Of a stretch of DNA of 64,000 nt, positions 27,422 to 64,000 are shown piece after piece (the stretch's first letter is position 1; every line of letters starts with the position of its first letter). Position numbers and translations under genes: made by a program. The notes under the pieces are model-generated. The model was given only the letters and a program-made list of their open reading frames with translations. It did not search any database and was not told the origin of the DNA. This DNA comes from an uncultured Pseudomonadales bacterium (lineage in GTDB: Bacteria; Pseudomonadota; Gammaproteobacteria; Pseudomonadales; CANNCY01): NCBI GenBank assembly GCA_947503335.1, contig CANNCY010000004.1, positions 258,305 to 322,304 of the forward strand, in the 5' to 3' direction.

Positions 27422-28363
27422 TTAGTCGGTTTCGTATAACTCTTGAGTCGAATCGATAAAGGTGTCGATCGACTCGGTGGCCCCAAACTGCATCGCTGGG
27501 GGCAACAGCAAACTGCGATATTGCGGCGGCGTAACCTGGTTTTCAGGTGCAGGAGCCCAGTAATCGAGAGCCCAAAAAGCAAACATCACTACCACAGCGA
27601 TACTCGCAAACGTATAGCGACGGCGATTAGACTGCTCTAAAGCCACTTTCAATGTGATTGCGACTAGTACAAACATCGACACATAATTCACTAGTTGGCG
27701 CACGGCAACTAGTGACCAGTTTACAGGCAGGTTAAACTGAATTAATTCTCGCCCAATCGCACCAATAACGATTAACGAAAAGAGCGAAAACGTGGTCGTG
27801 GTTAACGCGATAAAGCGCGATTCACGCTTGTGTAATCGATTGAGTAAGCCGGCACCCATCAACCACAGTGTAGGTAAGATCATCTCTTCTAATAATCTAG
27901 AACCCATGCGGGTATAAATTAGTTTTCCAGTCGTTTGCAGATAGATTGCAAACAGTTGCACAGCCGCATATAAAGCGATGGCACCTATCGCAAAGGGCAG
28001 TGTACTAGCACGCTCTAATACCTGTTCGTAGGTGCTCACAATGCGCGCAGGCGCAACCTGGTGAGACGCTAAATAAACACGAACCTGTGTGCGGCCCAGC
28101 CAAAAGCTATCACCAGAACTGATGTGAAGCAGCGGCTCGCTTTTGCCACGCTTTTTATGAGAGATGCCGTTAAGTGAGTGTTGATCTTCAATTTTGATCA
28201 AGCCTTGATCTACCGAAACAGAACAATGAATCGGCGATACAAGAGGGTCATCAATAATCAAATCACTGTCAAAACTTCTGCCTACCGTTGCAGAGTCGGT
28301 CACTACTTTTGTACGGTGTTCAACGCGGTCATTACGACCAATTATTTCAAGTACTATGGCCAT
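27422..28363 (-). CDS. FHA-domain protein with C-terminal polytopic membrane domain
   Basis: N-terminal FHA pattern (ATVGRSFDSDLIIDDPLVSPIHCSV...HSLNGIS...SGDSFWLGRTQVRV) followed by about 5-6 hydrophobic helices. The start overlaps the protease gene stop by 10 nt. Confidence 0.7.
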   Translation of the reverse strand: MAIVLEIIGRNDRVEHRTKVVTDSATVGRSFDSDLIIDDPLVSPIHCSVSVDQGLIKIEDQHSLNGISHKKRGKSEPLLHISSGDSFWLGRTQVRVYLASHQVAPARIVSTYEQVLERASTLPFAIGAIALYAAVQLFAIYLQTTGKLIYTRMGSRLLEEMILPTLWLMGAGLLNRLHKRESRFIALTTTTFSLFSLIVIGAIGRELIQFNLPVNWSLVAVRQLVNYVSMFVLVAITLKVALEQSNRRRYTFASIAVVVMFAFWALDYWAPAPENQVTPPQYRSLLLPPAMQFGATESIDTFIDSTQELYETD

Positions 28364-29601
28364 AGAATACTCTCTGTAAACTGGCGCAAAAATAGATCAG
28401 CATTATTTTGATTGACCCCAGAAAGGGTGTAGTGGCTTATTAGGGCGCGGTCGTTGTGACCAATGTGTGCCGCATTGTAGATCACATCATATAGACCCTT
28501 AAATTTCTTGTACGACCTAACGCAATAAACAGTTTCTATATTTTTATCTTGTGCGCCTTCTACGCGCGCTTGCTCGCATTTGAAGTTGTTAACTTGATTA
28601 GCGTTTGCGCGATTACCTGGGCGCGCATTCTGAAAGTTTCTGCGCACTTGATTATAAAAATGTCTAGGCGATAACGTATCGGTCTGCATCCAATGAAATT
28701 GAATTTCGATAGAGCCAGTCTGAAATTTATTCTCAATATAGATGTTATCGTTGAGATAACAGTTAAACTTCGTCGATAGATAAATAGTGTCTTTCGTGCT
28801 CTTGTTAGATTTGCCCCAGCACGACAAAAAGTCGGCAAATTTTGATGGAACCTGAGCGTCACCTAGCGAAAGAGAAGGCCAGTCTTCATTTAAAATTAGA
28901 TTGTAGAGGCGCGATTGATTATCTGTTAGTTGCGCAGTGATCATTTCATTGATCGGCGAGTGATCGTTAGTCGCAGAATCTACTAAATGACTCAGCGGTT
29001 TTAGTGGCACTAAAAAGCCTAAAGCATTACCGCCTGTAGCAACATTGACGCCAACGACCTTGCCTGACTCATTTAATACTGGGCCGCCGCTCATTCCGGG
29101 GTTAACAGAACCTGTAAAATGAATACGTGGGTAGAAGCTGTGCTCTTTTAAGCCGTTGTATGTTCCTGGGCTCACGATCATACCTAGGTCGCGCGGATTA
29201 CCCAGTGAGTAAATAGTGTCACCCTGATTTGGATTGTTATCACTTAGTTCAATAAAGTGTTCTAACTCGCCTTCTAGTTTAACGATGGCTAAATCGTTGA
29301 CGACATCGACAGAGATAATCGATAACGAGCCAACATCACCCATATTATTGACGTACTGTAATTTGTAATCGTCAGGCGACAGTGCTTTTTGGCTGATGAC
29401 ATGATAGTTAGTGGCGATGAGACCGTCGGCACTAATCGCGAATCCAGTACCGTAACTTGATTTGGTGTCTGACGATATGTCTAGTACTTTAATTTGATAT
29501 AGCGATTGTTTGTGGGTTTTAAACAGCTCGCTAGCATCTTCGTCACCGACAGCGATAACCGTGGTGAACGACAATAAGATGCCCAATATTAGGCGTCGCA
29601 T
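28354..29601 (-). CDS. Secreted trypsin-like (S1, DegP/Trypsin_2-type) serine protease with unknown C-terminal domain of about 200 aa, no PDZ
   Basis: Signal peptide MRRLILGILLSFTTVIAVG. Catalytic triad contexts ATNYHVI (His), NDLAIVK (Asp) and NPGMSGGPV (Ser). Confidence 0.8.
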   Translation of the reverse strand: MRRLILGILLSFTTVIAVGDEDASELFKTHKQSLYQIKVLDISSDTKSSYGTGFAISADGLIATNYHVISQKALSPDDYKLQYVNNMGDVGSLSIISVDVVNDLAIVKLEGELEHFIELSDNNPNQGDTIYSLGNPRDLGMIVSPGTYNGLKEHSFYPRIHFTGSVNPGMSGGPVLNESGKVVGVNVATGGNALGFLVPLKPLSHLVDSATNDHSPINEMITAQLTDNQSRLYNLILNEDWPSLSLGDAQVPSKFADFLSCWGKSNKSTKDTIYLSTKFNCYLNDNIYIENKFQTGSIEIQFHWMQTDTLSPRHFYNQVRRNFQNARPGNRANANQVNNFKCEQARVEGAQDKNIETVYCVRSYKKFKGLYDVIYNAAHIGHNDRALISHYTLSGVNQNNADLFLRQFTESILWP

Positions 29602-29664
29602 AACGATCCTTTGTTGTTTTTATGACAATTTAGCATGGGCTAAGGGGTTTTAGCGAATTTTAGC

Positions 29665-30132
29665 CTACCAATGAGCCTGTTCAAACAGCTGCATAAACAT
29701 TTGTTTAATTCGAATTACTCCTGCTTGGGGTAGATCCATAGCAATACCAGTGCCGTTTTCTTGAATCAGCGATAGACGAGTCATCTCTGAGGACTGCACT
29801 TCTAACACGTGCTTGATTGCTAGAGGATAGGTGTCGACTTGCGAGATGCATTCGTTATTGCGACTTAATCTTGTCTGAGAGTTCTCTACCGCTCTCTTTT
29901 CAGCATCGTTAACGGCTTCGCTGACACCCACATCTTGACTGTCGTCTGCATGAGTGAGTCGCTCAATGAGTTGCTGTGTCTCAATTTGTGCCTGCACCGA
30001 TGCACCTAATTGAACTAGTATCGACTTTGCAATGCGCCGCGTAATCCACCAGTCAGGTTGCGTTACATCAAGCCCAGTCTTAAGCAATACACGATCTTGT
30101 CTAGAGTCGTAGGTAATTTCTAGTGCACTCAT
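29665..30132 (-). CDS. Hypothetical cytoplasmic protein (155 aa), no recognised domain
   Basis: The ORF starts 1 nt after the stop of the 389-aa gene. No signal peptide or TM. Confidence 0.4.
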   Translation of the reverse strand: MSALEITYDSRQDRVLLKTGLDVTQPDWWITRRIAKSILVQLGASVQAQIETQQLIERLTHADDSQDVGVSEAVNDAEKRAVENSQTRLSRNNECISQVDTYPLAIKHVLEVQSSEMTRLSLIQENGTGIAMDLPQAGVIRIKQMFMQLFEQAHW

Positions 30133-30133
30133 A

Positions 30134-31303
30134 TTAAATCAAGTCGTCAAGACCACCTTGTTGGGGATCAGGGCGATCAAGGTTGGTATGCTCATGATCA
30201 GGCGTGTCGGCGAATACATCGGGTTCAGCTGAAATAGCAGCTTCTGCACTCGTCCAGTCGCTAATAGCTGCGTCGTCTTCAATCGCTTGTGTCGATATGG
30301 ATGCTTGAGGCGCTGAGTATTCAGACGAGATATCTAGCGTCAGCTCTGCTTTGGCACCTTCGACCGGTTGTCCTAACGCCGATAAACCTTCAAATTTGAT
30401 CGATTGAGGCCCCGATGCATCAGGGCCTAGCGACAAGTTAATGCTTGCGTCTAAATTGCCAGACACATGAAACTCGCCAGGATTTACTTCAATGCCTGCG
30501 CTTACTTTGGCGCCAACAGGTAGATCGTAAATAGAGACCTGATCTACTTGTTCAAGTGACGTAATGTCAGAAGGTATAGAAATAGCGAATTCTGAGTCGG
30601 GCGGCGCGGTAAGATCAAATGACGATTCTGGTTCAGCAGTGTTCACAATAGCTGGTTCGTTAACATCGATACTATCGCTCGGTTCTTTAGCCTCTGTATA
30701 GCGTGGCGACACCATAAAGCGCTCGGCAAAGCCAATGGGTTCACCGCTATTTTCTTCAGCTCTGGCAAGCGAGAATTGATGGTTAAAAACAGATCCTTGG
30801 TCAACGATTTCGATGTCTACAATAGGCTTGTCAGGCGCGTCATCGCCTTGTTCTGATAGCTCAAACTGAAACACATCATCGTCTATTCGATTGATCGTTG
30901 CAGCATCACTGTGAACATTGTGAATCTCGGCCACGCTCGATAGTTCGTCAGCTACTGTGCTAAGAATATCCGCAGTTGATAGCGTAAGTGGTGCATCGAA
31001 CGGCATGGTTGCGATGGGCAGGTCGAGTAATTCAACGACCGGGGCAACGTCAAAATCCAGACGAGCGGTGATCACCGACGAGTCTTGTTCTGCCTCGATC
31101 GATAAACCCACCTCACCGCCAAAATCAGGGTCAGAGAAGTAAACCCAACTATCAGGCCCTTCACTGATCAACGTGCCCGACTCGCCAATCTGTTCAATAT
31201 TGCGAATCTGAGCATGTAACTCTAGCTGTGCAATCGACGCGATAATGTCTTTACTTGTAAAAGCCAACTCGCCTGATTCATCAACTCGCCATCTAGCCAT
31301 CAT
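30134..31303 (-). CDS. Acidic 389-aa protein sharing the C-terminal domain of the giant adhesin (candidate second T1SS substrate)
   Basis: Good SD (AGGTGA) upstream of ATGATG. No signal peptide. Its last 151 aa or so align without gaps to the last 151 aa of the 6,990-aa protein (see findings). Confidence 0.6.
   Translation of the reverse strand: MMARWRVDESGELAFTSKDIIASIAQLELHAQIRNIEQIGESGTLISEGPDSWVYFSDPDFGGEVGLSIEAEQDSSVITARLDFDVAPVVELLDLPIATMPFDAPLTLSTADILSTVADELSSVAEIHNVHSDAATINRIDDDVFQFELSEQGDDAPDKPIVDIEIVDQGSVFNHQFSLARAEENSGEPIGFAERFMVSPRYTEAKEPSDSIDVNEPAIVNTAEPESSFDLTAPPDSEFAISIPSDITSLEQVDQVSIYDLPVGAKVSAGIEVNPGEFHVSGNLDASINLSLGPDASGPQSIKFEGLSALGQPVEGAKAELTLDISSEYSAPQASISTQAIEDDAAISDWTSAEAAISAEPDVFADTPDHEHTNLDRPDPQQGGLDDLI
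30137..30589 (-). other. Homologous C-terminal domain in the 389-aa protein
   Basis: ...ISIPSDITSLEQVDQVSIYDLPVGAKVSAGI...ISSEYSAPQ...AIEDDAAISDWTSAEAAISA...QQGGLDDLI. Positional matches to the giant protein tail over the full length. Confidence 0.55.
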
Positions 31304-31347
31304 CTATCACCTATGCAAGCGCAGCGCAAAACGTGCCGTACTGATCT

Positions 31348-34300
31348 TTAAATGTAGTCGTTCGGATCGTTATCGCCTCCATTGTTTTGATCAGGGGTAT
31401 TGTCTTCTGCACCACCGGTATCAGCGAGTGGGTCAACACCGCCTGCGTCAGCAGCGGCAGTAGTCCAGTCGTCTGCAGCAACGGTATCGTCAATCGCCTC
31501 TGCGTTGTCTGCGCTGCTACCATCAAGCGCGTAGTCGCTGCTTACTTCAACACTGGTCGTTGCCTCTGCGCCATCAACAGGGTTGTTTAACTGATCCATG
31601 CCCTGAATATCTAGAACCGCAGTACCTTCAAAGTTGTCTCCAAGGGTCATCGAAACCGGCTGGCTTAGATCGCCACTTAACGTGTAGCTACCATCGCCGT
31701 TGTCTATGCCGCTTGATAGAGTGGCTCCCTCTGGTAGACCTCCAATTACAACCGAATCAACAGAAGCATCACCCGAGATATCGGTCGGAATCGATACAGA
31801 CACCGAGCCGCCAGGAGCTGCTTGGGCGTCAATGCCATCGGCAACGGCATCAGGGCGAGTATCCCCTGATAGTGATGCCTGAACCGTCTCGGTGCCGTCA
31901 CTAACATCAAAGGTCATATCCACTTCGCCCTCATGGTTTTCATCAGCGACTAACGTATAGGTGCCGTCGCCATTGTCGGTCATGGTGGCGTGATCAGACT
32001 GGAAGTTACTAACGGTGAGGTTATCGCCATCAACATCGCTAACATTCGCTAATAGCTCTTCTAGCGTGAATGTTTGCGTGCCCGTTTCGACGAGATCAGC
32101 CTCTACAGCACCACTTACCTCAGGTGCATCGTTCTCTGCTGTGATCGTGAGATTGATGTTACCCGTGCCACTGTTATTGGCGTCACTAGCGCTTACTTGA
32201 AGCTGTACCGTGCCGTTATAGTCAGGGTCACTCCAGAAGGTGTAGGTGCCGTCGCCATTATCGATGACCGTACCGGCATCAGGGTCAACGGTTACATCGT
32301 CGATGCTGCCGGTACTATCTACTGCACCCACTTGATCAAGTAGTTCGGCGGTGGTCAACGTAAGCGAGCCGTCTTCTGCCATGGTGTATTCGGCTGGGTC
32401 AGGGTCGGCGATCGCTACATTCAATTGGCTTTGTATCGTGCTGGTACCATCGGTTGCACTAAAGCCAATGGCCACGTCACCGGTAACCCCTTCATCTGGG
32501 GTAAAGGTATAGGTACCGTCGCCATGATCAAGAACAACGCCTTCGCCGCCAATTACTTCGACGCCGCTAATACTGAGGTCATCACCATCGGCATCGTTAA
32601 CCGTGCTCAATAGGTCTGCATCAGTAAAGTTGAGGCTGTTACCAGCATCAATGTTTGTTGTGATTTCGGTGTCGGCGGTAGGTGCACTGTTGCCGCCACC
32701 GGCATTATCAAACACTGCAATCGAGCTTTGCGCATCTGTGCTGTTGCCGTTTTCGTCGACCACTAAGAACGCCATACCCACTTCGCCCGAGAATCCATCA
32801 GCCGGAGTAAAGGTGTAGGTGCCGTCGCCGTTATCAACCAAGTCACCCTGCGAACGATCTGCAAGATGGGCGAGTTGAACACTATCGGTTTCGCTGGTCT
32901 CAAGGCCTGACATTTCGAGTAGATCGGCCTCGGTAAAGGTAACCGGCTCGCCTGCATTGGTCTCAAAGTCACCGACAGGAACAGTACTACCATCGAGATC
33001 GGTTACTTGTTCGTCACCGTAGTCAATGGTGGTTGCACTTACCGTTACCTCAAAGGTGCCTGCCCAGTTTTCGGGTGGCGTCATCGCAATGTTTTCGGTA
33101 TCCCAACCGGTCACGTCGACATACTGATTCTCTTCAGTAATAGTAATCGTGTTGGTGCCATCGCTTAGTACGAAACCAACAGGGAAGCCGGTAATTGCTA
33201 CGTTACTAATTGATTCACTGTCATCAATTAAGCCGACACTGAAGCTAAAGATGCCGGTTTCATCTTCGGTCATCACAATCGGCCCATCTTGGGTGCGAGT
33301 AATTACCGCGCCATCGGCTACTGGGCGAATATAAACCGGTAGGTCTAGCGTGGTCTCTTCAGTACCATCGGTGACCACAAGCTCTAACTGAGGAATACCG
33401 GCAAAGTCTTCAGCACCCACGTAGGTGTATGTGCCGTCGCCGTTATCGGTAAGTGAACCCTCTTCATCGTCGGGTAAGATCACCCGCGAAATAGCAACCG
33501 TGTCACCATCGACATCGCTAAATAGATCAAGCATGTCATCGGCGTTGAAGGTGATCGCGCCGTCTTCTTCAATCGCTAGATGAGCATTACCCGACGCAAA
33601 GGCAGCATCGTTGACCGGCTGAAAGTCAGTATTTAAAGTACCATCGGTCGTGGTGGTGCCATCACTGATTTGGTAATCGAGTTCGATTACCCCGTTAAAG
33701 TCTTGTGATGCCACTAGTTGATAGGTGCCATCCTGCTGTTGGTTTAACTGCGCGTTTTGGGGCTGACGTACACTCAGATTAGTAAGTGTTAGATCATCGC
33801 CATCAAGATCAGTCGCCTGAGCTAGAATAAACGCAGGGTCGATGGTGAGTACCTGATCTTCGGTGCCGACCAGTTCTACGGTAGGCGCGTCAGGGGCATC
33901 GTTAACACCTTCGACGTTTACGTTATAGGTTGCACTGGTGGTAGCTTCGCCATCGGTCACGTCATAGCTAATTGCGATCTCACCGTTAAAGTTTTCGGTG
34001 GGCGTAAAGCTAAAGGTACCGTCGCCGTTATCAACCAACGTTCCTTGCGAGTCATCCTCCATGGCAAGATTTAGAGCTGTTAGCGCATCGCCATCGATAT
34101 CACTCGCATTCTCCAACAAATCTTCTTGAGTGATCGTGATAGTGCCGTCTTCTTGCATGCTAGTAGACGAGCCAGCGCCACCGGCTGCAAAGATAGAAAT
34201 ATCATCAACAAAGTGTTCTGCAGTTGAGCCACCTGTACCGCCGGCGAAGGCGGCTTTTACAGAGTCGGGTAGGTTAATACCGTTGTCTGGCAGAGAATAG

Positions 34301-37300
34301 TTTTCGATCTCGGTAACAAAGGTTGTGCCGCCATCGTAACTTAGCTGAACATTAAGCACACCTTCGGGTGAGATATCGATGTTAACCGGAATAGTCTGGT
34401 TATCGATAACGTCGTTACCTAAGTCGAACGTTTCAACTACACCGTTTGGCCCAATCAGCTGTATCGAATCGCCCCACCATTCTTCAAAGGCAATACCGAA
34501 TTCCATGCCGTCCATGCCCTGAATACCCATGCTGCCGCCAGGGTTGCCAGCTTCAAAGTTATTGCCATCAATTTGATCGCCGTTAACTAACACAAAGCCC
34601 ATGCCGTCGCCGTTATCGGTGGCCGACTGGTTACCCATGGTAAAGCTAACCTGAATACCCTGGTCAGAGGGCATCTCTTCATCATAAAGAATCGCGCCAG
34701 CCTGCTGACTTGTATCTTCAGTTAGCGTTACTTCGCCGTCAGCGATAGTTGCGTCGCCCGCTGCAACCCATCCTTCAGCGTTGCCGCTAAAGTCTTCGCT
34801 CATGTCGATGCCACCAGCGACAACTGGGCCATCGTTCACCGCATTGACGGTGATATCGACGCCGCTTTGTACCGTAGAGCCATTACCGTCAGAAATGTCG
34901 TAGGTAACATCAAGCGCACCATTAAAGTTGGCATCGGGCGCGATCGTAAAGCTGCCGTTGCCATTGTCGGTTACTGTCGCATTAGCAACCTGCAAATTAC
35001 TTGCGGTTAGATCGTCACCATCAGCATCGGTCGCGTTGGCGAGTAGTTGCTCTTGGGTAAGGGTTAGCGAACCATCTTCGTCGATCGTGGCGGTGACATT
35101 ATCGCCTACCACAACAGCATCGTTTACTGACTCAACTGTGGTTACATGCATTGCTTGCACTGTTTCAGTGCCGTCAGTTGCATCAAAGGTGAATGCAAGG
35201 CTGCCATTAAAGTCGGCATCGGGGGCAACAGTAAAGGTACCATCGCCGTTATCTTGAATTGTTGCTTCGGTTGACCCCGGTGCTAGCTGCAAGTTACTCG
35301 CCGTAATGTCATCACCGTCGATGTCGGTAGCGTTGGCTAACAGATCATCTTGGGTGATGATTAGAGTACCATCTTCGTTAACGGTGCTACTTGATACGTC
35401 GACACTTGGACCATCGTTGACCGCTTCAACAGTAACATCCAAAGTATTACTAACAGGGTCGCCGTTTCCATCACTAATGGTGTAGTCGATCTGTATGTCG
35501 CCATTGAAGTTAGCACTAGGTTCATAGGTAAAGCTGCCGTCGCCGTTATCGGTTAGGGTACCGTCGGCACCATCTGCCAACGATACCGATGAAACGCTGA
35601 TAACATCACCATCAACATCGTTTGCGTTGACCAATAGATCAGCGTTGGTGAATGTATAGCTGCCGTCTTCTTGCATGGTAGCCGACAGTGGGTCACCAGC
35701 TGTTGGCAGGTCGTTGACATTGGTTACTTCAACATTGATTGTGCCCTGAGCTTGACCACCGTTACCATCATCAATGGTATAGGTCACTGGCATCGTGCCA
35801 ACAAAATCATCATTACCTGTGATCGTGTAGGTGCCATCGCCATTATCCACGAAGGTACCGTCATCGCCATCGTAGCTCATATTGGTAATGGTTAGGGTGT
35901 CACCATCAACGTCAGATACGGGTAAGATGTTAATAAGTTGCGCAGGGTCAACCACAACAGACGCTTCTTCGGCTTGGCTAACTGCAACGGCGTTGGCGAC
36001 TTCAGGTATATCATTTACAGGGTTAACGGTGACATCAATACCTGATTGCACGGTTGAGCCATTACCATCACTAACATCAAAACTAACGTTAAGTGAGCCG
36101 TTGTAATCGGCATCAGGTGCAACCGTGAATGAGCCGTCACCATTATCAGTAACGGTTGCATTTTGTACCTGCAAGTTACCGGCAGCAAGATCATCGCCAT
36201 CAACATCAGTTGCATTAGCGAGTAGATCATCTTGAGTCATGGTGAACGAGCCGTCTTCGTCAATCACCATGGTGAGCTCGGCGCCAACTTCTACAGCGTC
36301 GTTTACTGCAACGATATCCACACTGATGGTCTCAGAATTAGTTGCTGTACTGTCACCGTCGGTTGTAGCTGCAGTCGCAGTGATAGAGATTTCACCGCTA
36401 AAGTTTTCGGGTGGCATCAAGGTAAGATCTGCAAGATTCCAACCGTCGACATTAATCGAGCCACCATCGCTTTCTGGCGTATAGCTATTAGTGCCATCAG
36501 ATAGCGTTACACCAGCTGGGATATCACTTAATTCTAAACTTAAGGTTTCAGATCCGTCGGTATCAACAAGAGTTGCCGATAGATCAACGTTGACCGCAGT
36601 GTCTTCGTAATGGGTGTCATCAGTTTTCTGGGCGACAACACGAATGTTGTCCATGATGCCACCGGCACCATCATCGCTGTGTGAATTAAAGATGATGGTT
36701 GGATTGTCGACCGTAGCAGTGAAGGTAAATTCATACGAACCCCAACCCGCGCCATCAACTGGCTCAACATCAAAGGCTTCGAAACCGTTCTCAGTTTGAA
36801 CGCGAATATGGATGCCATCATCGCCCGTTGCGCCAGCACGTGCGGCTGCATCAAAGCTAAGGGTGAAGGTGTCACCTACCTCAACACCATCAGCATCTCT
36901 CATGATGCCTGCCCAACTTGAATTGCCGTACGTCTCTAGCTCAACTACCTGACCGTGATCACCGGTAGCAAATGCGCCTAAGTATGCAGACTCATCATTT
37001 ACTTCAATGTGATTTGATGGGGTAGCAGTTGCCCATCCCCATTGATCAATGTCGGTTAAGCCAGCGGTGATGTCTTCAAAATCTTCATTAAATATTTCAG
37101 TCTCAATAATATTCGCAGCAGGTTCTATGGCAAATGCCAACTGTGCAGCATCTGCAACTTCAACCACATTTAATGTGGATGCAAATTCTGCAGTAGTCGT
37201 GCCATCAGATAGTGTGATGGTTAGATCAGCAGCACCTGCGAAATGTTCATCGGGTGTGATAGTAAAGGTACCGTCGCCGTTATCGACAACCGAGCTATTT

Positions 37301-40300
37301 CCATCAGAAGAGCTGATTGATGCCACTGACAAAACATCTCCGTCGACATCAGAGGCGTTAGCTAAAATATCAGCAGCGTTAACGGTAATCGCGCCATCTT
37401 CTGATGTATTAAAGTCAACACGTGTCATTACAGGCGCATCGTTAACTGGGTTAACTTCTAAGAATGCATTGCCGGCTGTTGCGTCGGTGCCGTTACTTAC
37501 ATCGTAATCAAACTGCACCTGTCCATTGAAATCAGCATCAGGTATAAATGCATAGGTGCCGTCACCGTTATCCACAAGGGTACCGGCGTCTTCACTGGTG
37601 AGTGTGAAGTTTTCAATCGATAGCGAGTGGTCAGCATCACTCGCGTTCGCAAGTAGCTGCTCGTCAGTAATGGTAATTGAATTGTCTTCATCAACACTTA
37701 GGTTTGTATCGTTGACGATTGTTTCATCATCAACTGACGTAACGTTAAAGCTTAGAGTGGCCGACTCGCCCGCTAAACCATTTTCGTCAACTGCATGGAA
37801 CCCAATGTCTACTAAACCATCTCCATGGGCGTTTTCGTCTGGTACGAAGGTAAGTTGGTCAAGTTGTGATTGGGTAAGATTGTCGCCAGGCTGCACTTCT
37901 TGATTGCCATTTACTAATCCGTCGATTTGTTCGGCTGTAAGAGCATCGTCAAAGACTTCAAAGTTTGCCAACGAACCAGCGAACGGTTGATGGTTACCGA
38001 GGCCATCATCGTCATGATCAAAGTTGCCCACTTCACTGATAGAATTCGTTACTTGGTGTGCCGATGAACCAACGAACTCGCCATCAATATAGAAGTGCGT
38101 CTCGCCACCTTCACCCACGGCGGTCAGATTGTGGAATTGACCGTCGTTGTGATCTGAATTCAGAAAGAAACCAGAACCAAAAAACTGTGAATGATCATTG
38201 CTGTAAACACCAATTTCATTCGTGGTGCCGTGTAGTAAGATATGATGATTACCGCCGTCAGAGACGTCGCCGCGTGTCAACGTACTCCATTGACCATCAT
38301 TAAGTTTGGGGTTTTGGAAGTCAACCGAGACAGTCCATGACTCGCCCATCTCTACGTTGGTGTCTAGATCGATAACGTCTGTATCAGGAGAGTCGAAGGT
38401 ATAAACCTGACCTAGCTCAGCATCATTTGTAACTACTACTCCATCTGCGCTGCTGTTTGTCGTAGTATCAAGAGTAAAGTTTGCTTCGGGTAGACTAGTG
38501 TCATAACCCAAGATCAGGCTACCCTCACCATCAATACTGTCAATGGTTACGGTGTAATCATCGCCATCAGCATCGGTTACTGGGAAGTCAGCAGAACTTA
38601 GTTGATAAGCGGTGTCTTCTGTGGCGGTGATCGTGTTATCACTCGCCTGAGCGGCATCGTTGACGGCGGTAACTTGAGTCACATGCATTGCTTGCACGGT
38701 CTCGGTGCCATCCGTTGCATCAAAGGTAAAGGCTAGTTCGCCATTAAAGTCAGCTTCGGGAGTGACGGTAAAGGAGCCATCGCCGTTATCCTGAATCGTT
38801 GCCTCAGTTGACCCTGGAGCAAGTTGCAGATTGCTCGCGGTAATATCATCGCCATCGATATCAACGGCATTCGCAAGTAGGTCATCTTGAGTGATAGTTA
38901 TGATGCCATCTTCGGCAACATTACTAAGCGACGTGTCAACAGTAGGGCCGTCATTTACTGCCGTTACGGTGACATCGATATTACTTTGAATTGTAGAGCC
39001 GTTGTTGTCGGTTACATCAAAGGTTACATCTAAATCACCATTAAAGTTCGCATCTGGTGACACAGTGAATGTGCCATCACCGTTATCGGTGATAGACGCG
39101 TTGCTCGACTGCAAGTTCTGAGCGGTTAAGTCATCACCATCAAGATCACTCGCGTTGGCCAGCAGTTGTTCCTGCGTCATAGTGAACGAGCCGTCTTCAT
39201 CAATGGTTACGGCAAGGTTGTCACCGACCTGAACAGCATCGTTCACTGCATTGATAGTAATTGGAATATCCATGGTGCTAGTAGCTGTGTCACCACCGGC
39301 ATCGGTTGCGGTCGCAGTTGCTGTTAAGCTTGCATCGCCATTAAAGTTTTCAGGCGGTGTCATGCTTAGATTCGACAGATCCCAGCCTGACACATCGACG
39401 CTATCTTCATCAGCCGTTGCCGTGAAGCTATTAACACCATCAGTTAGCACCGCGTTTTCAAGAAGGCCGCTGATTTCTACTTCGAGTGATTCTGAACCAT
39501 CGTTATCGGCAAGGGCTGCCGAAATATCAATCGCTACCGCGTTGTCTTCGTCAGCAGACAGATCGGCTTTAGTTACTGTAACGCGATCGAGTAGGGCGCC
39601 TGCGCCATCATTGAATGCCGCTTGAAACTCGAAGCGAGGATTATCTTCGGTAGCGGTGAGCGTGTAACTAAAGGTTTCAAAACCGATCTCAGGAATCATC
39701 TGATCGATCTCTTCGCCTTCGAAGAAAAGCTTCACATGGTTTGACTGCGGGTCAAGATTATTACGACCCGACATATCAAACTCGATGGTAAAGGTTTCAC
39801 CGGCTTGTATGTCTAGATCCTTCCATAGGTTACCTGCGTCGTTACCATAGCCTTCTAGTTCAAGAACGGTACCTTCGGTTGAACCGGTGACTCCATAGGT
39901 TCCCGAGGCCTGGTTTACTTCAACGAGGTTATTAAAGCCAGCTCCACCGTCGCCACCCGTATTATCAGTAGACCACCCCCAAACAGCAGGGTTCTGCCAT
40001 CCAGATTCAGTAACGGTAAACGAGTGCAATGGTGTTGTATCTAAGTTCAGCGCCAAGAACGGCTCATCAGCAGTTCCTGCCACCTCGACACTTGAGCTAA
40101 AGGTAGCGGTGTCGGTGCCATCTGAAATAGTAATTTCTAAGTTATCGGTACCGGCAAAGTTATCATCGCCATACAGCGTGAAGGTGCCGTCACCGTTATT
40201 CAAAATAGTGGTGTTACCATCGGTTGAGCTGATGTCAGTAACTGACAACGCATCGCCGTCTACGTCTGATGCATTCGCCAAAATGTCGGCCGCGTTGATG

Positions 40301-52320: not shown

Positions 52321-52429
52321 CTCACTAAATACATCTATGACCTTTTTAGTGTAGGCAAATAATTTTGGATCAACGGCGTATTGACCTGACTCAGCTACAG
52401 TATTAAGACAACTTTATTTTGTACGAAAG

Positions 52430-52451
52430 AGTGCTAATACAAATTAGTACT
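52430..52451. promoter_or_regulatory. Inverted repeat in the divergent adhesin/ABC control region (candidate operator)
   Basis: AGTGCTAAT-ACA-AATTAGTACT; the arms are complementary except for one mismatch. Lies in the AT-rich 166-nt region between the starts at 52320 (-) and 52487 (+). Confidence 0.3.
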
Positions 52452-52486
52452 AAGAAAGAATACTTGGTTATATAAAGAAAATTTTT

Positions 52487-54100
52487 ATGCTCAATAAAAA
52501 CGAGGCGAGTCTATCGCCTAAAAGTTATATTGAATCGATTAAAGTATTCGACACTATCGGCATAACTTACCTATGCACGTCGACCGTAATATCGACTCTG
52601 CTCTCCCTCGTTTTACCATTCTCGATACTCATAATTTTTGACCGAGTTGTGCCCAATCAGGCCACAAGTACATTGATGCTACTCTTCGCGATTATCTTGA
52701 TATCTGTTTGGTTAGACAATTATGTTAAGCGTGCAGAACAAGGCTTTACTAATCGCATTACTGAAACCTTTGAGCGACGCGTAAATGAGAAAGTATTTGG
52801 CGCAATAGCAAATACTGATATGGCAAAATTTGAAATGATTGAGCCGTCAGATATCGTTAACCGAGTAGCAACAGTTGGGCTAGTTAAAACACATAACAGC
52901 ACTGACATTATTACAGGTCTGGTGAACGCAATAACCTGTCTGATAGTTTGGTTAACAATACTTGTTATCAATACAGGGGCCGGCACAATCATACTCATAG
53001 CATCTATTGTACTGTTCTTTCTAGCTAAAAAGCTCGGGCAAAATAAACTCGCACAACTATCAAATAAAGAGTCAAAAGAATCAGAAAGTAATGCCAAAAT
53101 AGTAGAGGTGATATCAAGGCCGATAAATGTAAAAAGCGCCTCGATGGAGTACCGACTAGAAAACATGATGAGCGCTATCGCCGAGGATCGAGAAAACTAT
53201 AACGCAAAATTTGAACAGTTAGAAGCTGACTTCTCATTGCGGCTACAAACAATTGGTGCGCTATCGGTTGCGCTCGTCGTGGCGTTTTGTGCTTCATCAG
53301 TAATAGCAGGCGTGACGGGGCAAGGTGCAATGGCTGCGGTGATAATGCTCACTAATAGATACTTCTCACCATACCAACAAGTGATGAGTGCAATTAGTCG
53401 TCGAAAAACAAACCAATGGCATATCGATCGACTTACAGAGTTAGTGGAGTTAGAGCCCAGTTTAAAAGGCGAGCGCCTTGATCAAATCAATAGTATTTGC
53501 GTAGGTGACGAAGAAAAAGGTATTCGATTAAATCGAGGTAACGTTATCTGTGTGTTAGGGAAATCGGCAAGCGGTAAGTCGCTGTTATTAAAAGCGCTGT
53601 CGAGAGAATACGTCAGCGACAAGTCACCGATAACGGTTAACGATACCGAAATGAAAGATATAGACTACGGCTGGTGGCGCGATAACGTTGTGCGAGTACA
53701 TTCGGGCTCTGCGTTTATTGACGGAACGATTGTCGATAACATCACATCATTTCAACCATCTCTAAACAAATCAGCGTTCGCGTTGTGCGAAAGTATGGGC
53801 ATTCGCCATTATATTGATGGGTTAAGACAGGGATTTTATACCCAAATAAAATCATCTTCGCCATTGCCTTTTCCTAGGCAAGTCAAGTATGGCCTGTTAG
53901 CTGTCAGGGCGATGTTAACATACAAACAGGTTTATCTATTCGATGACATTGATCAGGTGGCGGATGCATTATTCCTGGATAGATTTGCGACAACACTGAC
54001 TAGGATAAAAGACCGAACTATTGTCGTAATTGTCGCGAGTGATCTTGACTACGAACACTATGCATTTGATTGTCTCGACTCCAAGAAGATTAGTCTATGA
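52487..54100 (+). CDS. ABC exporter (TMD-NBD half transporter) with degenerate nucleotide-binding motifs, no N-terminal accessory domain
   Basis: The TMD resembles T1SS/bacteriocin exporters (LLSLVLPFSILIIFDRVVPNQ). Walker A is intact (GKSASGKS). The other positions, aligned by eye to HlyB, are degenerate: Q-loop reads VHS, signature LPFPR instead of LSGGQ, Walker B VYLFDD (Asp in place of the catalytic Glu), H-loop VASD (no His). Confidence 0.75.
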   Translation: MLNKNEASLSPKSYIESIKVFDTIGITYLCTSTVISTLLSLVLPFSILIIFDRVVPNQATSTLMLLFAIILISVWLDNYVKRAEQGFTNRITETFERRVNEKVFGAIANTDMAKFEMIEPSDIVNRVATVGLVKTHNSTDIITGLVNAITCLIVWLTILVINTGAGTIILIASIVLFFLAKKLGQNKLAQLSNKESKESESNAKIVEVISRPINVKSASMEYRLENMMSAIAEDRENYNAKFEQLEADFSLRLQTIGALSVALVVAFCASSVIAGVTGQGAMAAVIMLTNRYFSPYQQVMSAISRRKTNQWHIDRLTELVELEPSLKGERLDQINSICVGDEEKGIRLNRGNVICVLGKSASGKSLLLKALSREYVSDKSPITVNDTEMKDIDYGWWRDNVVRVHSGSAFIDGTIVDNITSFQPSLNKSAFALCESMGIRHYIDGLRQGFYTQIKSSSPLPFPRQVKYGLLAVRAMLTYKQVYLFDDIDQVADALFLDRFATTLTRIKDRTIVVIVASDLDYEHYAFDCLDSKKISL

Positions 54101-61985: not shown

Positions 61986-64000
61986 CAGCTTACCTTACTC
62001 ACCGCCATAAACTTTTTAAGAATCTTGACGATCTCTTCGTCTTTATATGGCTTAGATATGACGTAGTCCATACCACCGTCAATGCACTGCTTATGTTCCG
62101 CAGCACTCGTAAGGGCGGTAGCACCAATTATGGTCGGCTTTGGTTCATGATTTAGTTGTCTTATCTTACCAGTTGCCGCAATACCTCCCATGCCTGGCAT
62201 GATGCAGTCCATAAAGATCAGGGGAGTTTGATTAGTAACATAATGTTCAATTGCGTCTTCTCCAGAACCAACCGTATCTACAGTAAGCCCTTGTGAGCTT
62301 AGCATATCGCTAAGAATAAATTGCTGAACAGGATCGTCATCTACTACAAGTGCACGAGTGCTTTCGACGGCCGTATCTTCAGCGTCCGAGTTAATAATCT
62401 CTTCTAATTTAAGGGCGAACTGACGATTGTCATTAGGGCGATAAAATGTGTGGTCTACGTGTTCATAAACGCCAGCAGCAACATCTGGGCTACTAACACT
62501 GAGTATCAGTTTGCACGGCGATGTTAGTTTCTTCATTCTTGTTCGAAGCGTTTTACAAAACGATCCTAGCTCAATCCCCTGTACCGTGTCAGTAAGCATA
62601 ACTGCGTCGTATTCTTCGACGATCTTGATATTTCTAAATAGCTCGCTTGGCTTTTCAATGGCCTCTACCTGCCCATAGTAGTCATTCAAAATATTCGATA
62701 AAACCGATACTTGCAAAGAGCTAGACCCACATACCAAAAATTTTCTTCCATCGAGAATCTTCTTTGGAGCATCAAACAAATCAGGAGAAATATCGATATT
62801 CATGACAAACCGGTGAAACTGATCTCCATGGCTAAACTGATGGGTCTCAAAGGTTGTACTGTCGTCTACTAAGCTACGTGCAATGTGACGGTTATCTGTC
62901 TCGTTGTCGGCTTCTTGCCAGTCGATGGCTGAGATTTCGTTAAATGGAGATTCAATGTCTTTGAAGTTCACAATTTCAAGCGTAAGTCCCACGTGATCGA
63001 TGGTGCTAGAGGATGTGGTATAGCATTTCAAAAATACGCAGTCATGCTTTAGCGAACTAATGACGTTTGATATATGAAGCAGAAGTAACCAATAAAAATT
63101 AACCGGGCTACCGTGAATTGTTAAGGGCAGCGTGCGATCAACATAGCATTCAAAAATCTTATCGTTACGCCGACATTTTGATGACACTGATAACGCAATT
63201 TCATTGATCATTTTAATTAACTGAATCGTATCTTGCTTTGTCGAAGCATTAGTAACGCTAAATATTTGATCAAAGTTCTCAGCAAGGCTCTCTAGCGTGT
63301 CGGTGGCGGTATTTATCTCGGTGCCCAATAGTGCAACTTCTTCAGATGCTTCGCTAACTAATACTTTGAGGCCACCTTTGATGGTATTCGATAGTGCCCT
63401 TATCTCGAATCCAATTACTTTGTACAAAGATGCATACAAATCAATATGCATCTGCGTGTCTTCAATTGACTGATAGAGTCGCTGGATACTCGAGTAGATT
63501 GTTCTCGCGTCGGTATGCATCGATGTGTCGTTAAGTGCTTCGGCGATGACAGATGAATTACCTGCACTCAGATCGTCTTTAATCTTGATAGAAAGCTCTT
63601 TTTCTTTTGCTATTCGATCATAGTAATGTGACCGCCTAGATGACTGATATTGATAGTCGATTAAAGATAAAATTACTGCTATCAAAATACATATAAGGCC
63701 CATAACAAAAATGTTATAGAGAGACTGAAGTTCAGTATCTCTATGCCTGACTACCGATGAAATGCGCCATTCTCTAAGCGAGTTGCGAAACTTGGCGATC
63801 GCTACTAAATCTTTAAGATTACGATTATTTTTGTACAGTTCTATGTGGAGATCTAAGTTGTGAATATCAAAGCTGCCAGCGGTTTGTATATAGTCTCGCT
63901 CATTGGCTGCAGCGTTCTTGAAGTGGCTTAAGGTGACATCAAGCGTCTCAAAATAATCAGATAAGCTTTCAGGGCTACACCGAGCTGGACAACTAAGTGC
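61985..64000 (-). CDS. Degenerate hybrid sensor (HK-like core lacking the phospho-acceptor His) with C-terminal receiver; 5' end beyond window
   Basis: My translation of the minus strand shows the frame stays open from the listed ATG (63703) up to nt 64000 (...ALSCPARCSPESLSDYFETLDVTLSHFKNAAANERDYIQTAGSFDIHNLDLHIELYKNNRNLKDLVAIAKFRNSLREWRISSVVRHRDTELQSLYNIFVMGLICIL...). The true start is therefore probably upstream and the listed Met sits in a TM helix. The H-box position reads GFEIRALSNTIKGG. The genuine receiver lies at the C-terminus (ALVVDDDP...IFMDCIMPGMGG...SKPY). Confidence 0.7.
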   Translation of the reverse strand, partial: ALSCPARCSPESLSDYFETLDVTLSHFKNAAANERDYIQTAGSFDIHNLDLHIELYKNNRNLKDLVAIAKFRNSLREWRISSVVRHRDTELQSLYNIFVMGLICILIAVILSLIDYQYQSSRRSHYYDRIAKEKELSIKIKDDLSAGNSSVIAEALNDTSMHTDARTIYSSIQRLYQSIEDTQMHIDLYASLYKVIGFEIRALSNTIKGGLKVLVSEASEEVALLGTEINTATDTLESLAENFDQIFSVTNASTKQDTIQLIKMINEIALSVSSKCRRNDKIFECYVDRTLPLTIHGSPVNFYWLLLLHISNVISSLKHDCVFLKCYTTSSSTIDHVGLTLEIVNFKDIESPFNEISAIDWQEADNETDNRHIARSLVDDSTTFETHQFSHGDQFHRFVMNIDISPDLFDAPKKILDGRKFLVCGSSSLQVSVLSNILNDYYGQVEAIEKPSELFRNIKIVEEYDAVMLTDTVQGIELGSFCKTLRTRMKKLTSPCKLILSVSSPDVAAGVYEHVDHTFYRPNDNRQFALKLEEIINSDAEDTAVESTRALVVDDDPVQQFILSDMLSSQGLTVDTVGSGEDAIEHYVTNQTPLIFMDCIMPGMGGIAATGKIRQLNHEPKPTIIGATALTSAAEHKQCIDGGMDYVISKPYKDEEIVKILKKFMAVSKVS

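Follow-up and report, generated by a model that had tools for sequence, protein, structure and literature searches.

Background

The Lap system (LapA/LapBCE/LapD-LapG of Pseudomonas fluorescens; FrhA and CraA in Vibrio cholerae, PMC6890996) sets the gene of a giant repetitive adhesin, of the Ca-type beta-sandwich kind, next to those of a dedicated type I secretion system (T1SS) of ABC, MFP and TolC-like proteins. MARTX loci of Vibrio combine RtxB-RtxD-RtxE with TolC, and the second ATPase is described as RtxB-related (PMC3034196, citing Boardman & Satchell 2004). Relays of H-NOX and hybrid histidine kinases (HKs) are represented by HqsK-LuxU in V. harveyi and V. parahaemolyticus (PMC3759921, PMC6759604), HahK-SypF in V. 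fischeri (PMC12369376) and the H-NOX/HK/Hpt system of Silicibacter (PMC4436077); these published pairs signal through Hpt proteins. Paracoccus denitrificans offers a precedent in which NO and H-NOX influence a biofilm that relies on BapA, an adhesin exported by a T1SS (PMC5588039, PMC11536421). The link there is understood to run through c-di-GMP enzymes and not through gene clustering with the exporter.

The locus described here was found in a window of 64,000 nucleotides (the whole stretch of DNA analysed) from an uncultured Pseudomonadales bacterium. Like Lap, it places a giant repetitive adhesin beside its own ABC and TolC-like genes and a predicted MFP gene, and control could plausibly be exerted through an inner-membrane protein that has a periplasmic domain and degenerate signalling domains in the cytoplasm. 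Unlike Lap, it contains no LapD, LapG, GGDEF or EAL gene; the cassette has two ABC genes, and its control parts are Hpt, a pseudo-kinase/receiver protein and hybrid kinases. With MARTX, the cassette shares two ABC genes, one MFP and a very large, divergently encoded substrate. It differs in an ABC1 that is missing the N-terminal domain and whose NBD shows conserved degeneration, in a substrate other than an RTX toxin, in a TolC-like gene within the operon, and in the embedded receiver protein. Judged from sequence comparison, we lean slightly towards the view that a conserved cassette links a giant surface protein of non-RTX cadherin repeats with a T1SS of its own and with a phosphorelay. No published description of this cassette was found, and it is apparently undescribed.

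Organization and conservation of the locus

The genes of the block are as follows:

27422..29601, minus strand: FHA/multi-TM and S1 protease genes, with a 10-nt overlap between both
29665..30132, minus strand: 155-aa ORF, 1 nt from the 389-aa gene
30134..31303, minus strand: gene of the 389-aa acidic protein
31348..52320, minus strand: giant protein gene, 6,990 aa
52321..52486, no strand: 166-nt intergenic stretch separating the divergent giant and ABC1 genes
52487..54100, plus strand: ABC1, 537 aa
54097..56223, plus strand: ABC2, 708 aa
56220..58769, plus strand: HK1, 849 aa
58785..60137, minus strand: HK2, 450 aa (about 441 aa if started at the first ATG)
60118..60654, minus strand: H-NOX haem NO/O2-binding sensor, 178 aa
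60651..61985, minus strand: TolC-like outer-membrane channel, 444 aa
61985..64000, minus strand: pseudo-HK/REC gene (its 3' 2,016 nt), running off the window end

The eleven ORFs of the original prediction were all confirmed at their coordinates, and its domain calls (FHA, protease, ABCs, HKs, HNOB, OEP, REC and the giant) were upheld by the domain search. Spacings across the first minus-strand run are -10, 63, 1 and 44 nt, followed by the 166-nt divergent gap, which is presumed to be the control region of both the giant and the ABC1 units; the subsequent spacings are -4, -4, 15 (convergent), -20, -4 and -1 nt.

Related loci were compared in 66 species-level genomes of Vibrio, Aliivibrio, Photobacterium, Thaumasiovibrio, Shewanella, Psychromonas, Paraferrimonas, Aliagarivorans and Oleiphilaceae. 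In the canonical cassette the giant gene adjoins genes for Hpt, MFP, pseudo-HK/REC, the TolC-like protein, ABC1 and ABC2, often with a hybrid HK after them. The order MFP, REC, TolC, ABC1, ABC2 is kept in 64 of the 66 genomes, with the TolC-like orthologue between the REC gene and ABC1 in the same number of loci and ABC1 directly upstream of ABC2 in every one (66/66); metagenome contigs have an identical gene order. A cadherin giant adjoins the T1SS genes at 63 of the 66 loci, and their linkage is thus recurrent. The block is a rearranged copy of this marine gammaproteobacterial cassette, in which the ABC pair and HK1 have been split from the (Hpt-MFP)-REC-TolC part, the two parts now converging, and hnoX with its hybrid kinase has been added after the TolC-like gene.

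The giant protein and its short paralogue

About 46 Cadherin_5/Big_9 repeats, with inserts of LamG_3, Pentaxin, NPCBM and DUF642, were detected by domain search in the giant protein. Its repeats match NF012211 tand_rpt_95 and are thus "tandem-95" or cadherin-like, non-RTX repeats; no RTX repeats were found in the protein, which contains a single chance GGxGxD. The composition is extreme (19.4% D+E, 0.8% K+R and zero Cys), and the gene carries internal duplications at the kb scale. The N-terminus is acidic and disordered, with family-conserved motifs kept across 19 genomes: NPLNDAVE, QNQQNT.A.T.ATG, AQ.VGG and two copies of DFDTETVSETFEV. In contrast to Lap adhesins, there is neither a folded N-terminal retention module nor RTX repeats, and no di-alanine site of the form (T/A/P)AA(G/V) occurs in the first 400 residues.

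The C-terminal 170 aa or so of the giant form a family-specific domain, and alignment of C-termini showed that this module is kept in the giants of Shewanella. The 389-aa protein aligns with the last 300 residues of the giant (27% identity over 343 aa, E 3.5e-26), both C-termini ending in an acidic tail, and has only a single weak cadherin/tandem-95 repeat. These alignments make it a short paralogue that has the C-terminal module of the giant, a domain conserved across genera. The domain is presumed to be the T1SS signal of the giant, and the exporter probably takes the 389-aa protein as its second substrate.

Genes adjoining the adhesin system

The S1 protease is a secreted, trypsin-like protein (Trypsin_2, signal-peptide-like N-terminus), and its neighbour consists of an FHA domain and several TM segments. 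More than 2,500 homologues of the protease were detected, mostly in Alteromonadales. Paraglaciecola mesophila (locus L073) carries the pair but no adhesin, and so does L072, the closest relative, where the identities are 64% and 55%. Because the same pair is conserved without an adhesin, it is judged to be a widespread housekeeping pair that adjoins the adhesin system and is not part of it. The five-gene adhesin operon proposed at first therefore mixed two evolutionary units. Membership of the 155-aa ORF in the system is uncertain; it has no Pfam or NCBIfam family, gave no tblastn match in 87 related loci and is missing from L072.

The exporter and its components beyond the window

Each of the two ABC proteins contains ABC_membrane and ABC_tran domains. 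ABC1 is a half transporter of the T1SS type that has no N-terminal domain; it matches the LssB-type model at 134 bits, far under the cut-off. An alignment of 21 genomes shows that its NBD is degenerate family-wide: Walker A is retained, the Q-loop Gln is gone, the signature has become PF(S/P)RQ, Walker B reads DD and not DE, and the H-loop reads SNK. ABC2 is an HlyB/LssB-like T1SS protein with a non-catalytic C39-like N-terminal domain; its best family model, the LssB-type TIGR03375, scores 304 bits against a cut-off of 693. It retains Walker A and the Walker B Glu and has substitutions in the Q-loop, signature and H-loop. The signature and H-loop are thus altered in both NBDs, which counts against the export proposal where ATP hydrolysis is taken as the driver.

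The homologues of ABC2 form a tight clade at 41-50% identity, with the next drop to 24% or less. Its profile alignment covers HlyB residues 57-678, and a structure model (pLDDT 74.7) matched full-length HlyB best (8dck_A, E 9e-32), followed by PCAT1; in the model ABC2 has the HlyB/PCAT fold, N-terminal domain included. The likeness to HlyB/HlyD/TolC and to Legionella LssB/LssD lies in this fold and in an MFP above its family cut-off; the difference is that both ABC proteins fall far under theirs and carry substituted Q-loop, signature and H-loop. The two are presumably an obligate heterodimer. The TolC-like protein matches OEP at 157 bits with two repeats, and TIGR01844 at 156 bits, under the cut-off of 225.

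No MFP, Hpt, LapD, LapG, EAL or HD-GYP gene is encoded within 27422-64000. The last ORF, however, called at 572 aa and taken for a complete sensor-REC protein, is cut by the window end: its frame is open to nt 64000, it aligns to residues 69-748 of a P. profundum homologue, and a protein 100% identical to it (P0347) is 724 aa long, which puts 54 codons outside the window. An MFP of the HlyD family, P0222 (421 aa; TIGR01843 327.8 bits, cut-off 208.65), is not encoded inside the window; it is recorded on a 329,445-bp contig, the contig size also given for P0001 and P0227, two proteins that match the ABC2 and the protease of the window at 100% identity. In the relatives the MFP gene stands directly upstream of the REC gene in 64/66 loci, and the only locus without one is truncated by its contig. 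From synteny and the matching contig size, the MFP (P0222) almost certainly lies immediately past nt 64000. An Hpt-like ORF is found directly upstream of the MFP in 49/57 loci, and Hpt probably lies there too.

The absence of both genes is thus an edge effect of the window, and with it falls the view that a missing MFP makes this T1SS atypical; the two-ABC pair with degenerate NBDs and the embedded pseudo-kinase/receiver do make it so. The conventional outcome, an MFP with Lap-like regulators past nt 64000, is expected for the MFP but not for the regulators. In an alternative reading, the block would be an atypical T1SS complete in itself, lacking both MFP and Hpt, with protease and FHA in its operon and responding to NO through the genes at 27422-64000 alone, as close packing of the ORFs and failure to find either gene in the window would suggest. 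We regard this as very improbable: it is largely refuted by the truncated last gene, by P0222 and the MFP synteny, by the two kinases, both hybrids that require Hpt, and by the S1/FHA pair conserved without adhesins.

Signalling genes

HK1 is a membrane hybrid HK with a periplasmic NIT-like sensor, HAMP, HisKA, HATPase and REC; the NIT match (24.9 bits) lies exactly at the Pfam cut-off, a borderline assignment. Its H-box, SHEMRTPLN, and REC Asp are present. Hybrid kinases are cassette neighbours in many relatives, and full-length HKs homologous to HK1 follow ABC2 in 15/66 loci. HK2 is a cytoplasmic hybrid HK of the HqsK/HahK/LuxQ type (LuxQ-type 345 bits, NahK-type domain 190 bits, both under the cut-offs), translationally coupled to hnoX. 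Its homologues adjoin H-NOX at L042, L049 and L062. The H-NOX protein (HNOB, 135 bits; His102/104; Y132-S-S-S-R136, that is, YxSxR at 132-136) is 39-51% identical to the cassette-linked H-NOX of these three loci. As hybrid kinases, both HK1 and HK2 need an Hpt partner. The Pfam Hpt score is over the cut-off in L049 and L062, and the Hpt-like protein of the V. splendidus/harveyi clade carries Tyr instead of the phospho-His; phosphotransfer through Hpt is therefore not universal.

H-NOX, a hybrid HK and Hpt stand beside the cassette in Psychromonas, Paraferrimonas and an Oleiphilaceae MAG, in three different arrangements; by a rough estimate, about 0.3 such adjacencies are expected by chance (P ~0.004). 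H-NOX occurs at only 3/66 loci of the relatives, and the NO input is therefore accessory and not a defining feature. The flanking kinases and the H-NOX/kinase pairs in three other genera make NO-linked, Lap-independent control of the adhesin plausible. Of the NO-responsive system apart from Lap that had been proposed, the linkage of the giant to T1SS, two-component and H-NOX genes stands, and "self-contained" does not.

RcsD of the Rcs phosphorelay is a pseudo-histidine kinase with an Hpt domain that feeds RcsB. Similarly, the last protein of the window appears as an inner-membrane relay component that combines a periplasmic domain with a kinase-like core devoid of the His; it differs from RcsD in having a receiver and no known downstream partner. 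It consists of TM1, a periplasmic domain of about 125 aa, TM2, a DHp-like helix, a degenerate ATPase-like region and an intact REC at the C-terminus, the REC alone being found by domain search. Phe stands in its DHp-like helix where the phospho-His is expected; across 21/21 genomes the H-box His is replaced by Tyr or Phe, and the D, D, T and K of the REC are invariant. The receiver Asp is D651 in the numbering of the 724-aa protein. The pseudo-kinase part was found in only 37 representative clusters among 1.84 billion proteins, and the gene lies between the MFP and TolC-like genes in 64/66 loci. Being almost exclusive to the cassette, and in this position, it argues for a function tied to the exporter.

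In a different reading, the signalling genes are tied to the exporter by neighbourhood only, or control is transcriptional through an unlinked response regulator. The pseudo-kinase would be a phosphate sink or relay scaffold, and H-NOX/HK2 would supply a pathway of general scope, either quorum-sensing-like or based on c-di-GMP, as happens in Vibrio and Shewanella. Known H-NOX/hybrid-HK pairs do work through LuxU/LuxO, SypF or c-di-GMP enzymes. L072 keeps Hpt adjoining an HK1 orthologue (64% identical) without any T1SS, and these genes can therefore exist, and perhaps function, independently. A REC-GGDEF gene lies near L042, the scarcity of H-NOX at the relatives' loci fits, and the pseudo-Hpt of many Vibrio speaks against a simple relay. 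The position of the pseudo-kinase gene, its virtual absence elsewhere and its invariant receiver residues weigh on the other side, and we hold this reading to be rather unlikely, though the strongest of the alternatives.

Proposed mechanism

Under the cassette model that we favour, the giant and the 389-aa paralogue would be exported C-terminus first through the ABC1/ABC2 heterodimer, the MFP and the TolC-like channel, with the shared domain of about 170 aa as export signal. HK1, through its NIT sensor (possibly for nitrate/nitrite), and HK2, under control of NO-bound H-NOX, would each pass phosphate through Hpt to the receiver of the pseudo-kinase. As in the known H-NOX phosphorelays, translational coupling joins hnoX to a cytoplasmic hybrid HK in need of an Hpt, and the output would likewise be biofilm-related; in contrast to them, the nearest receiver is in a membrane pseudo-kinase of a T1SS operon and not in LuxO, SypG/E or a c-di-GMP enzyme.

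The signal might instead run from outside to inside, the periplasmic domain of the pseudo-kinase sensing whether the adhesin or channel is engaged, stalled or cleaved, and its DHp-like helix and receiver modulating the hybrid kinases and Hpt, so as to report surface attachment. The domain of about 125 aa between two TM helices is consistent with this, the DHp-like helix could heterodimerise with a kinase, and the short conserved motifs of the disordered adhesin N-terminus are a possible ligand. A canonical receiver with invariant phospho-acceptor, however, suggests a protein that receives a signal rather than originates it, and this direction of flow seems improbable to us.

In the favoured cassette model, the pseudo-kinase may act directly on the secretion machine or on adhesin retention, because it lacks any DNA-binding or enzymatic output and its gene lies within the secretion operon. 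If this is true, the cassette would be a phosphorylation-driven counterpart of c-di-GMP/LapD control.

Organization of the block

The genes of the block under study (27422-64000) are the following:

27422-29601 (-), secreted trypsin-like S1 protease and FHA multi-TM protein
29665-30132 (-), 155-aa ORF
30134-31303 (-), 389-aa protein
31348-52320 (-), giant protein of 6,990 aa
52487-54100 (+), ABC1
54097-56223 (+), ABC2
56220-58769 (+), hybrid kinase HK1
58785-60137 (-), hybrid kinase HK2
60118-60654 (-), hnoX
60651-61985 (-), TolC-like protein
61985-64000 (-), pseudo-kinase/receiver gene (REC protein), open at the window edge

All ORFs listed in the original prediction were present at these coordinates, and its spacings were exact: an overlap of 10 nt between the S1 protease and FHA genes, followed by gaps of 63, 1, and 44 nt. 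The divergent gap between the giant gene and ABC1 is 166 nt, ABC1/ABC2 and ABC2/HK1 overlap by 4 nt each, HK1 and HK2 converge with their ends 15 nt apart, and 20, 4, and 1 nt are shared at the later junctions. The earlier domain calls were confirmed by scanning, namely FHA with hydrophobic segments, a Trypsin_2 protease, two ABC_membrane and ABC_tran proteins, OEP, a NIT/HAMP hybrid kinase, a cytoplasmic hybrid kinase, and an HNOB protein. The last ORF, which had been read as a complete gene of 572 aa, is instead open to nt 64000. An identical full-length REC protein of 724 aa was found in the protein library (P0347); thus, the first 54 codons are missing from the window. In scans for promoters and terminators, the counts did not exceed the shuffled expectation, and they were set aside.

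The G+C content is about 41% in the T1SS/signalling segment (52000-64000), about 48% in the upstream housekeeping region (1-27000), and about 50% in parts of the giant gene. HK1 is low in G+C despite having an orthologue in the metagenome contig L072, so that composition is no clean island marker. Neither the TolC-like protein nor the ABC2 profile detected the source species among the 185,579 species-representative genomes, and the best matches of the window proteins, to Alteromonadales and metagenome proteins, are 44-64% identical, which suggests that the source is a poorly sampled lineage. A 624-aa GGDEF protein (1832-3706) and a 710-aa hybrid histidine kinase (19819-21951) are encoded upstream in the window, with unrelated genes for metabolism and peptidases lying between them and the block.

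A conserved adhesin-secretion cassette

ABC2 belongs to a sharply bounded clade, in which members are 41-50% identical to the window protein and beyond which the next matches reach at most 24%. Three neighbourhoods of this clade, in Photobacterium profundum SS9, Shewanella youngdeokensis, and Vibrio sp. SCSIO 43135, are alike, each with, in this order, a giant cadherin protein, an MFP, a receiver protein of ~740 aa, an OEP protein, and ABC proteins of ~530 and ~712 aa. When an ABC2 profile was scanned against one genome per species (185,579 species-representative genomes), 66 true loci were obtained and mapped by tblastn. The gene order MFP<REC<TolC-like<ABC1<ABC2 was found in 64 of the 66. 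One exception is cut off by a contig end, and the other, in a Pseudomonadales MAG, reads ABC1-ABC2-MFP-REC. Metagenome contigs showed the majority order as well. ABC1 lies directly beside ABC2 in every locus (66/66), with a single MFP, giving two ABC ATPase genes and one MFP per substrate locus.

Co-occurrence of these genes had been proposed as a check in the original prediction. The cadherin giant adjoins the T1SS genes in 63 of 66 loci (60 divergent, 3 co-directional), and H-NOX was found at the locus in three relatives.

The canonical order in relatives implies that the window copy is rearranged. Here, ABC1-ABC2-HK1 occupy the plus strand and diverge from the giant gene, and REC-TolC-like, with hnoX and HK2 appended, lie on the minus strand and converge on HK1. 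Profile-based rescans of genomes and metagenomes returned no close relative with this order. Searches with the TolC-like protein alone against the genome collection, and with P0222 (the MFP discussed below) alone against metagenomes, gave no match.

Predicted MFP and Hpt beyond the window edge

No HlyD-family MFP is encoded in the window by domain and sequence comparison, and the 452-aa and 734-aa ORFs of the upstream 27 kb, considered as a hidden MFP, are M28 and S9 peptidases. The headline claim of a system lacking an MFP is nevertheless most probably an artefact of the window edge. A profile of cassette MFPs detected P0222 (421 aa, E 5e-170), which is 51% identical to a Vibrio MFP and passes the curated HlyD-T1SS model TIGR01843 (327.8 bits; cut-off 208.65). 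P0222 is not encoded within the window; it is recorded on a single contig of 329,445 bp, a length also given for the contig of P0001 and P0227 (100% identity to the window ABC2 and protease, respectively). Together with the MFP-REC adjacency in 64 of 66 relatives, this record makes it probable that the MFP is encoded just past the window. Only a few bases most probably separate the start of its gene from that of the REC protein, itself predicted ~159 nt past nt 64000.

No Hpt is encoded in the window either. In relatives, the MFP gene is immediately preceded by a small ORF, which is Hpt-like in 49 of 57 loci; about half of these keep HxxKG. Pfam Hpt scores were above the threshold in two of the H-NOX-bearing loci (L049 and L062) and just below it in L002. 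An Hpt gene is predicted beyond nt 64000.

In the Vibrio splendidus/harveyi clade, the small ORF is Hpt-like (HMM E ~1e-12) with Tyr at the position of the phospho-accepting His, so that a pseudo-Hpt stands beside the pseudo-kinase in these cassettes. Such ORFs, directly upstream of the MFP, are located in the following loci:

L016, L019-L026, L028-L032, L035, L037, L048, L053, L061, L063, L067 (for example, L020:3080-3442)

Exporter

The best NCBIfam models of ABC1 and ABC2 are T1SS permease/ATPases, both with scores far under the cut-offs. In ABC2, Walker A and the Walker B-Glu are kept, the Q-loop Gln is replaced by Met/Phe, LSGGQ by LPxxVxx, and the H-loop His by Thr; its N-terminal 150 residues contain no conserved Cys or His. 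The ABC2 family profile extends to HlyB residue 57. The AlphaFold model has a mean pLDDT of 74.7, with values of 67-85 across the N-terminal domain, and both HlyB and PCAT1 are matched along their whole length. By profile reach and modelled fold, ABC2 can thus be classed as an HlyB-type ABC protein with a C39-like domain. ABC1 has no C39-like N-terminal domain; in 21/21 aligned genomes it has Walker A and no Q-loop Gln, with the signature changed to PF(S/P)RQ, DE to DD, and the H-loop to SNK. The two proteins presumably form an obligate heterodimer with unusual ATP sites. The TolC-like protein has two OEP repeats (157 bits) and scores 156 bits against TIGR01844, under the 225 cut-off.

Putative substrates

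In the giant, ~46 Cadherin_5/Big_9 repeats ('tandem-95', NF012211) are accompanied by inserts of the LamG_3, Pentaxin, NPCBM, and DUF642-like types. It is strongly acidic (Asp+Glu 19.4%, Lys+Arg 0.8%) and without Cys. No HemolysinCabind match was found by Pfam over the whole protein, one isolated GGxGxD occurs in its 6,990 aa, and its N-terminus is not signal-peptide-like. Internal duplications on the kilobase scale, at 82-94% nucleotide identity, occur at 35117-47633 (for example, 43722/47334, 42471/46089, and 35117/44150). They imply that the repeats expanded recently and that the assembly may be collapsed here.

The C-terminus of the giant has a paralogue in the 389-aa protein (E 3.5e-26, with 27% identity across 343 aa). 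In both proteins, the final ~170 residues align with the C-termini of Shewanella giants in the pattern AAPGGSV.VSIPT.IS ... GLPEG ... SGDLSQP ... P.DGA ... SSYE.DGSSAD ... DWT, after which the sequence ends in an acidic tail. This family-specific domain is presumably the secretion signal. At the other end, the giants have in common short motifs, NPLNDAVE, QNQQNT.A.T.ATG, AQ.VGG, and a doubled DFDTETVSETFEV, located in an acidic, low-complexity region of ~200 aa. The 155-aa ORF, 1 nt downstream of the 389-aa gene, matched no known family, and a homologue was found in none of 87 related loci.

The embedded pseudo-kinase/receiver

The only Pfam domain of the REC protein is its C-terminal receiver. 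The window fragment corresponds in alignment to residues 69-748 of a protein of 749 aa from Photobacterium profundum, and the 724-aa protein consists of TM1, a periplasmic domain of ~125 aa, TM2, a DHp-like segment, a degenerate ATPase-like region, and the receiver. In the DHp-like segment, (I/L)G(Y/F)E(I/M/V/F)R....T(I/L).GG, the phospho-His is replaced by Tyr/Phe in all 21 genomes aligned, and the receiver Asp-Asp, Asp, Thr, and Lys are invariant in the same 21. Among 1.84 billion proteins, the pseudo-kinase part was found in 37 representative clusters only, all of ~710-760 aa; by this distribution it is essentially restricted to the cassette.

Signalling inputs

HK1 and HK2 each contain HisKA, HATPase_c, and Response_reg, both with the H-box SHE(M/I)RTPLN. 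Full-length kinases similar to HK1 follow ABC2 in 15 of 66 loci, and elsewhere the same position is occupied by other hybrid kinases, a PAS-kinase, or a receiver protein. The H-NOX protein (HNOB, 135 bits) has a proximal His (His102/104) and the YxSxR haem-propionate motif, Y132-S-S-S-R136. HK2 is co-operonic with hnoX, overlapping its stop codon by up to 20 nt, and this pairing is also found in the three H-NOX-bearing relatives' loci (L042, L049, and L062), which belong to different genera and have different arrangements:

Psychromonas marina, H-NOX/kinase after ABC2
Paraferrimonas sp., H-NOX/kinase after ABC2, then Hpt
Oleiphilaceae MAG, H-NOX/kinase divergent from Hpt-MFP

For a single-copy gene within a 22-kb window, chance alone would give ~0.3 cases among 66 genomes, and the Poisson probability of three or more is ~0.004, as a rough estimate. 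In published systems, H-NOX/hybrid-kinase pairs signal via Hpt proteins or domains, as in HqsK-LuxU (PMC3759921, PMC6759604), HahK-SypF (PMC12369376), and Silicibacter (PMC4436077). In Psychromonas marina, a REC-GGDEF response regulator (L042:15608-16588) is convergent to the cassette H-NOX/kinase genes; in this genome the relay may thus have a branch leading to c-di-GMP.

A separate protease-FHA unit

The closest relative of the genes flanking the window cassette is L072, with the protease 64%, the FHA protein 55%, and HK1 64% identical. At L072:6969-12204, Hpt, a NIT-hybrid kinase (the HK1 orthologue), and protease-FHA are contiguous, with no adhesin or T1SS genes between; the Hpt, a protein of 108 aa, adjoins the HK1 orthologue and is a homologue of the Hpt found in the cassette (E 4e-16). 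Compared with L072, the window has two extra blocks: 155-aa ORF-389-aa gene-giant/ABC1-ABC2 between the protease and HK1, and HK2-hnoX-TolC-REC-(MFP) between HK1 and the expected Hpt. Either the relative may have lost these blocks or the lineage of the window may have gained them.

The secreted trypsin-like S1 protease and the FHA multi-TM protein are a translationally coupled pair conserved across Alteromonadales-like bacteria. More than 2,500 proteins, chiefly of Alteromonadales, are homologous to the protease. The pair, with the same short overlap, is located at:

window 27422-29601
metagenome contig, L072:10001-12204
Paraglaciecola mesophila, L073:8001-10243

In both L072 and Paraglaciecola mesophila it occurs without an adhesin, and the earlier assignment of the two genes to the adhesin operon is not supported; gene context identifies them as a separate conserved unit, independent of any adhesin. 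A LapG/LapD-like role of the pair for the adhesin was likewise rejected, because it is conserved in thousands of genomes that have no adhesin beside it.

Comparison with known systems

The cassette would work like a Lap adhesin/T1SS locus but does not belong to the Lap or RTX groups on membership tests. Unlike the LapA retention module, the giant's N-terminus is acidic and of low complexity with other conserved motifs, and no di-alanine LapG site, (T/A/P)AA(G/V), was found in its first 400 residues. As stated in the original prediction, LapD and LapG are absent from the annotated window ORFs; they were also not found at the locus in the Pfam-annotated neighbourhoods of L001-L003. The two-ABC layout is common to the MARTX exporters (PMC3034196), but the ABC types and the substrate differ: the MARTX toxin contains RTX repeats and effector domains, whereas the giant has cadherin/tandem-95 repeats and lectin-like inserts only. 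BapP of Pseudoalteromonas tunicata was excluded from the family, its exporter being MacAB/LolD-like. No description of a cassette with two ABC genes, Hpt, receiver, and cadherin giant was found in the open-access literature.

A proposed relay and its meaning

At present, nearly all explanations of how giant T1SS adhesins are retained at the surface invoke the circuit of c-di-GMP, LapD, and LapG. The original proposal, that adhesin and T1SS are placed under two-component and NO sensing in place of Lap parts, gains comparative support from the present work and becomes testable. Gene content, gene order, motif states, and conservation are established here, and the following scheme is inferred from them. 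ABC1/ABC2, together with the MFP and the TolC-like channel, would export the giant and the 389-aa protein. HK1, which may respond to nitrate or nitrite via a borderline NIT domain, and HK2, which would be controlled by H-NOX and NO, would phosphorylate Hpt, and Hpt in turn the receiver of the pseudo-kinase at Asp651. Since neither a DNA-binding nor an enzymatic output is present in the pseudo-kinase, and since its gene is always located between MFP and TolC-like, it would act on the exporter or on adhesin retention.

In its most specific form, which we consider improbable as it stands, the pseudo-kinase/receiver would be a LapD-like inside-out switch with phosphorylation replacing c-di-GMP. 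Signals from the NO- and nitrate/nitrite-responsive hybrid kinases would pass through Hpt to the receiver and change the periplasmic domain, holding or releasing the giant's N-terminal motifs at the MFP/TolC-like channel; tethered or released adhesin, or open or closed secretion, would follow without a transcriptional step. Several findings count against a simple relay: Tyr replaces the phospho-His in the Hpt-like protein of the V. splendidus/harveyi clade, L072 has Hpt and HK1 without an exporter, and H-NOX is an accessory input, not part of the core. A less probable rival explanation is that the pseudo-kinase serves as a sink or scaffold, with the transcriptional output elsewhere; the constant gene position, which points to the exporter, and the invariant receiver residues argue against it. 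The same membrane topology could also be read, with still less probability, as outside-in sensing of the adhesin state.

The cassette occurs in at least 66 species, including Vibrio, Aliivibrio, Photobacterium, Shewanella, Psychromonas, and others. It lacks the Lap circuit, and its constant feature instead is a membrane pseudo-kinase with an intact receiver inside a secretion operon, usually accompanied by Hpt and at least one hybrid kinase. ABC1/ABC2 would be a natural T1SS ABC heterodimer with conserved substitutions in both nucleotide-binding domains, which bears on the need for ATP hydrolysis in type I secretion. If the relay with the pseudo-kinase receiver acts on the exporter, there would be a second, phosphorylation-based control of adhesin deployment, and NO sensing would gain a direct route to attachment in some lineages.
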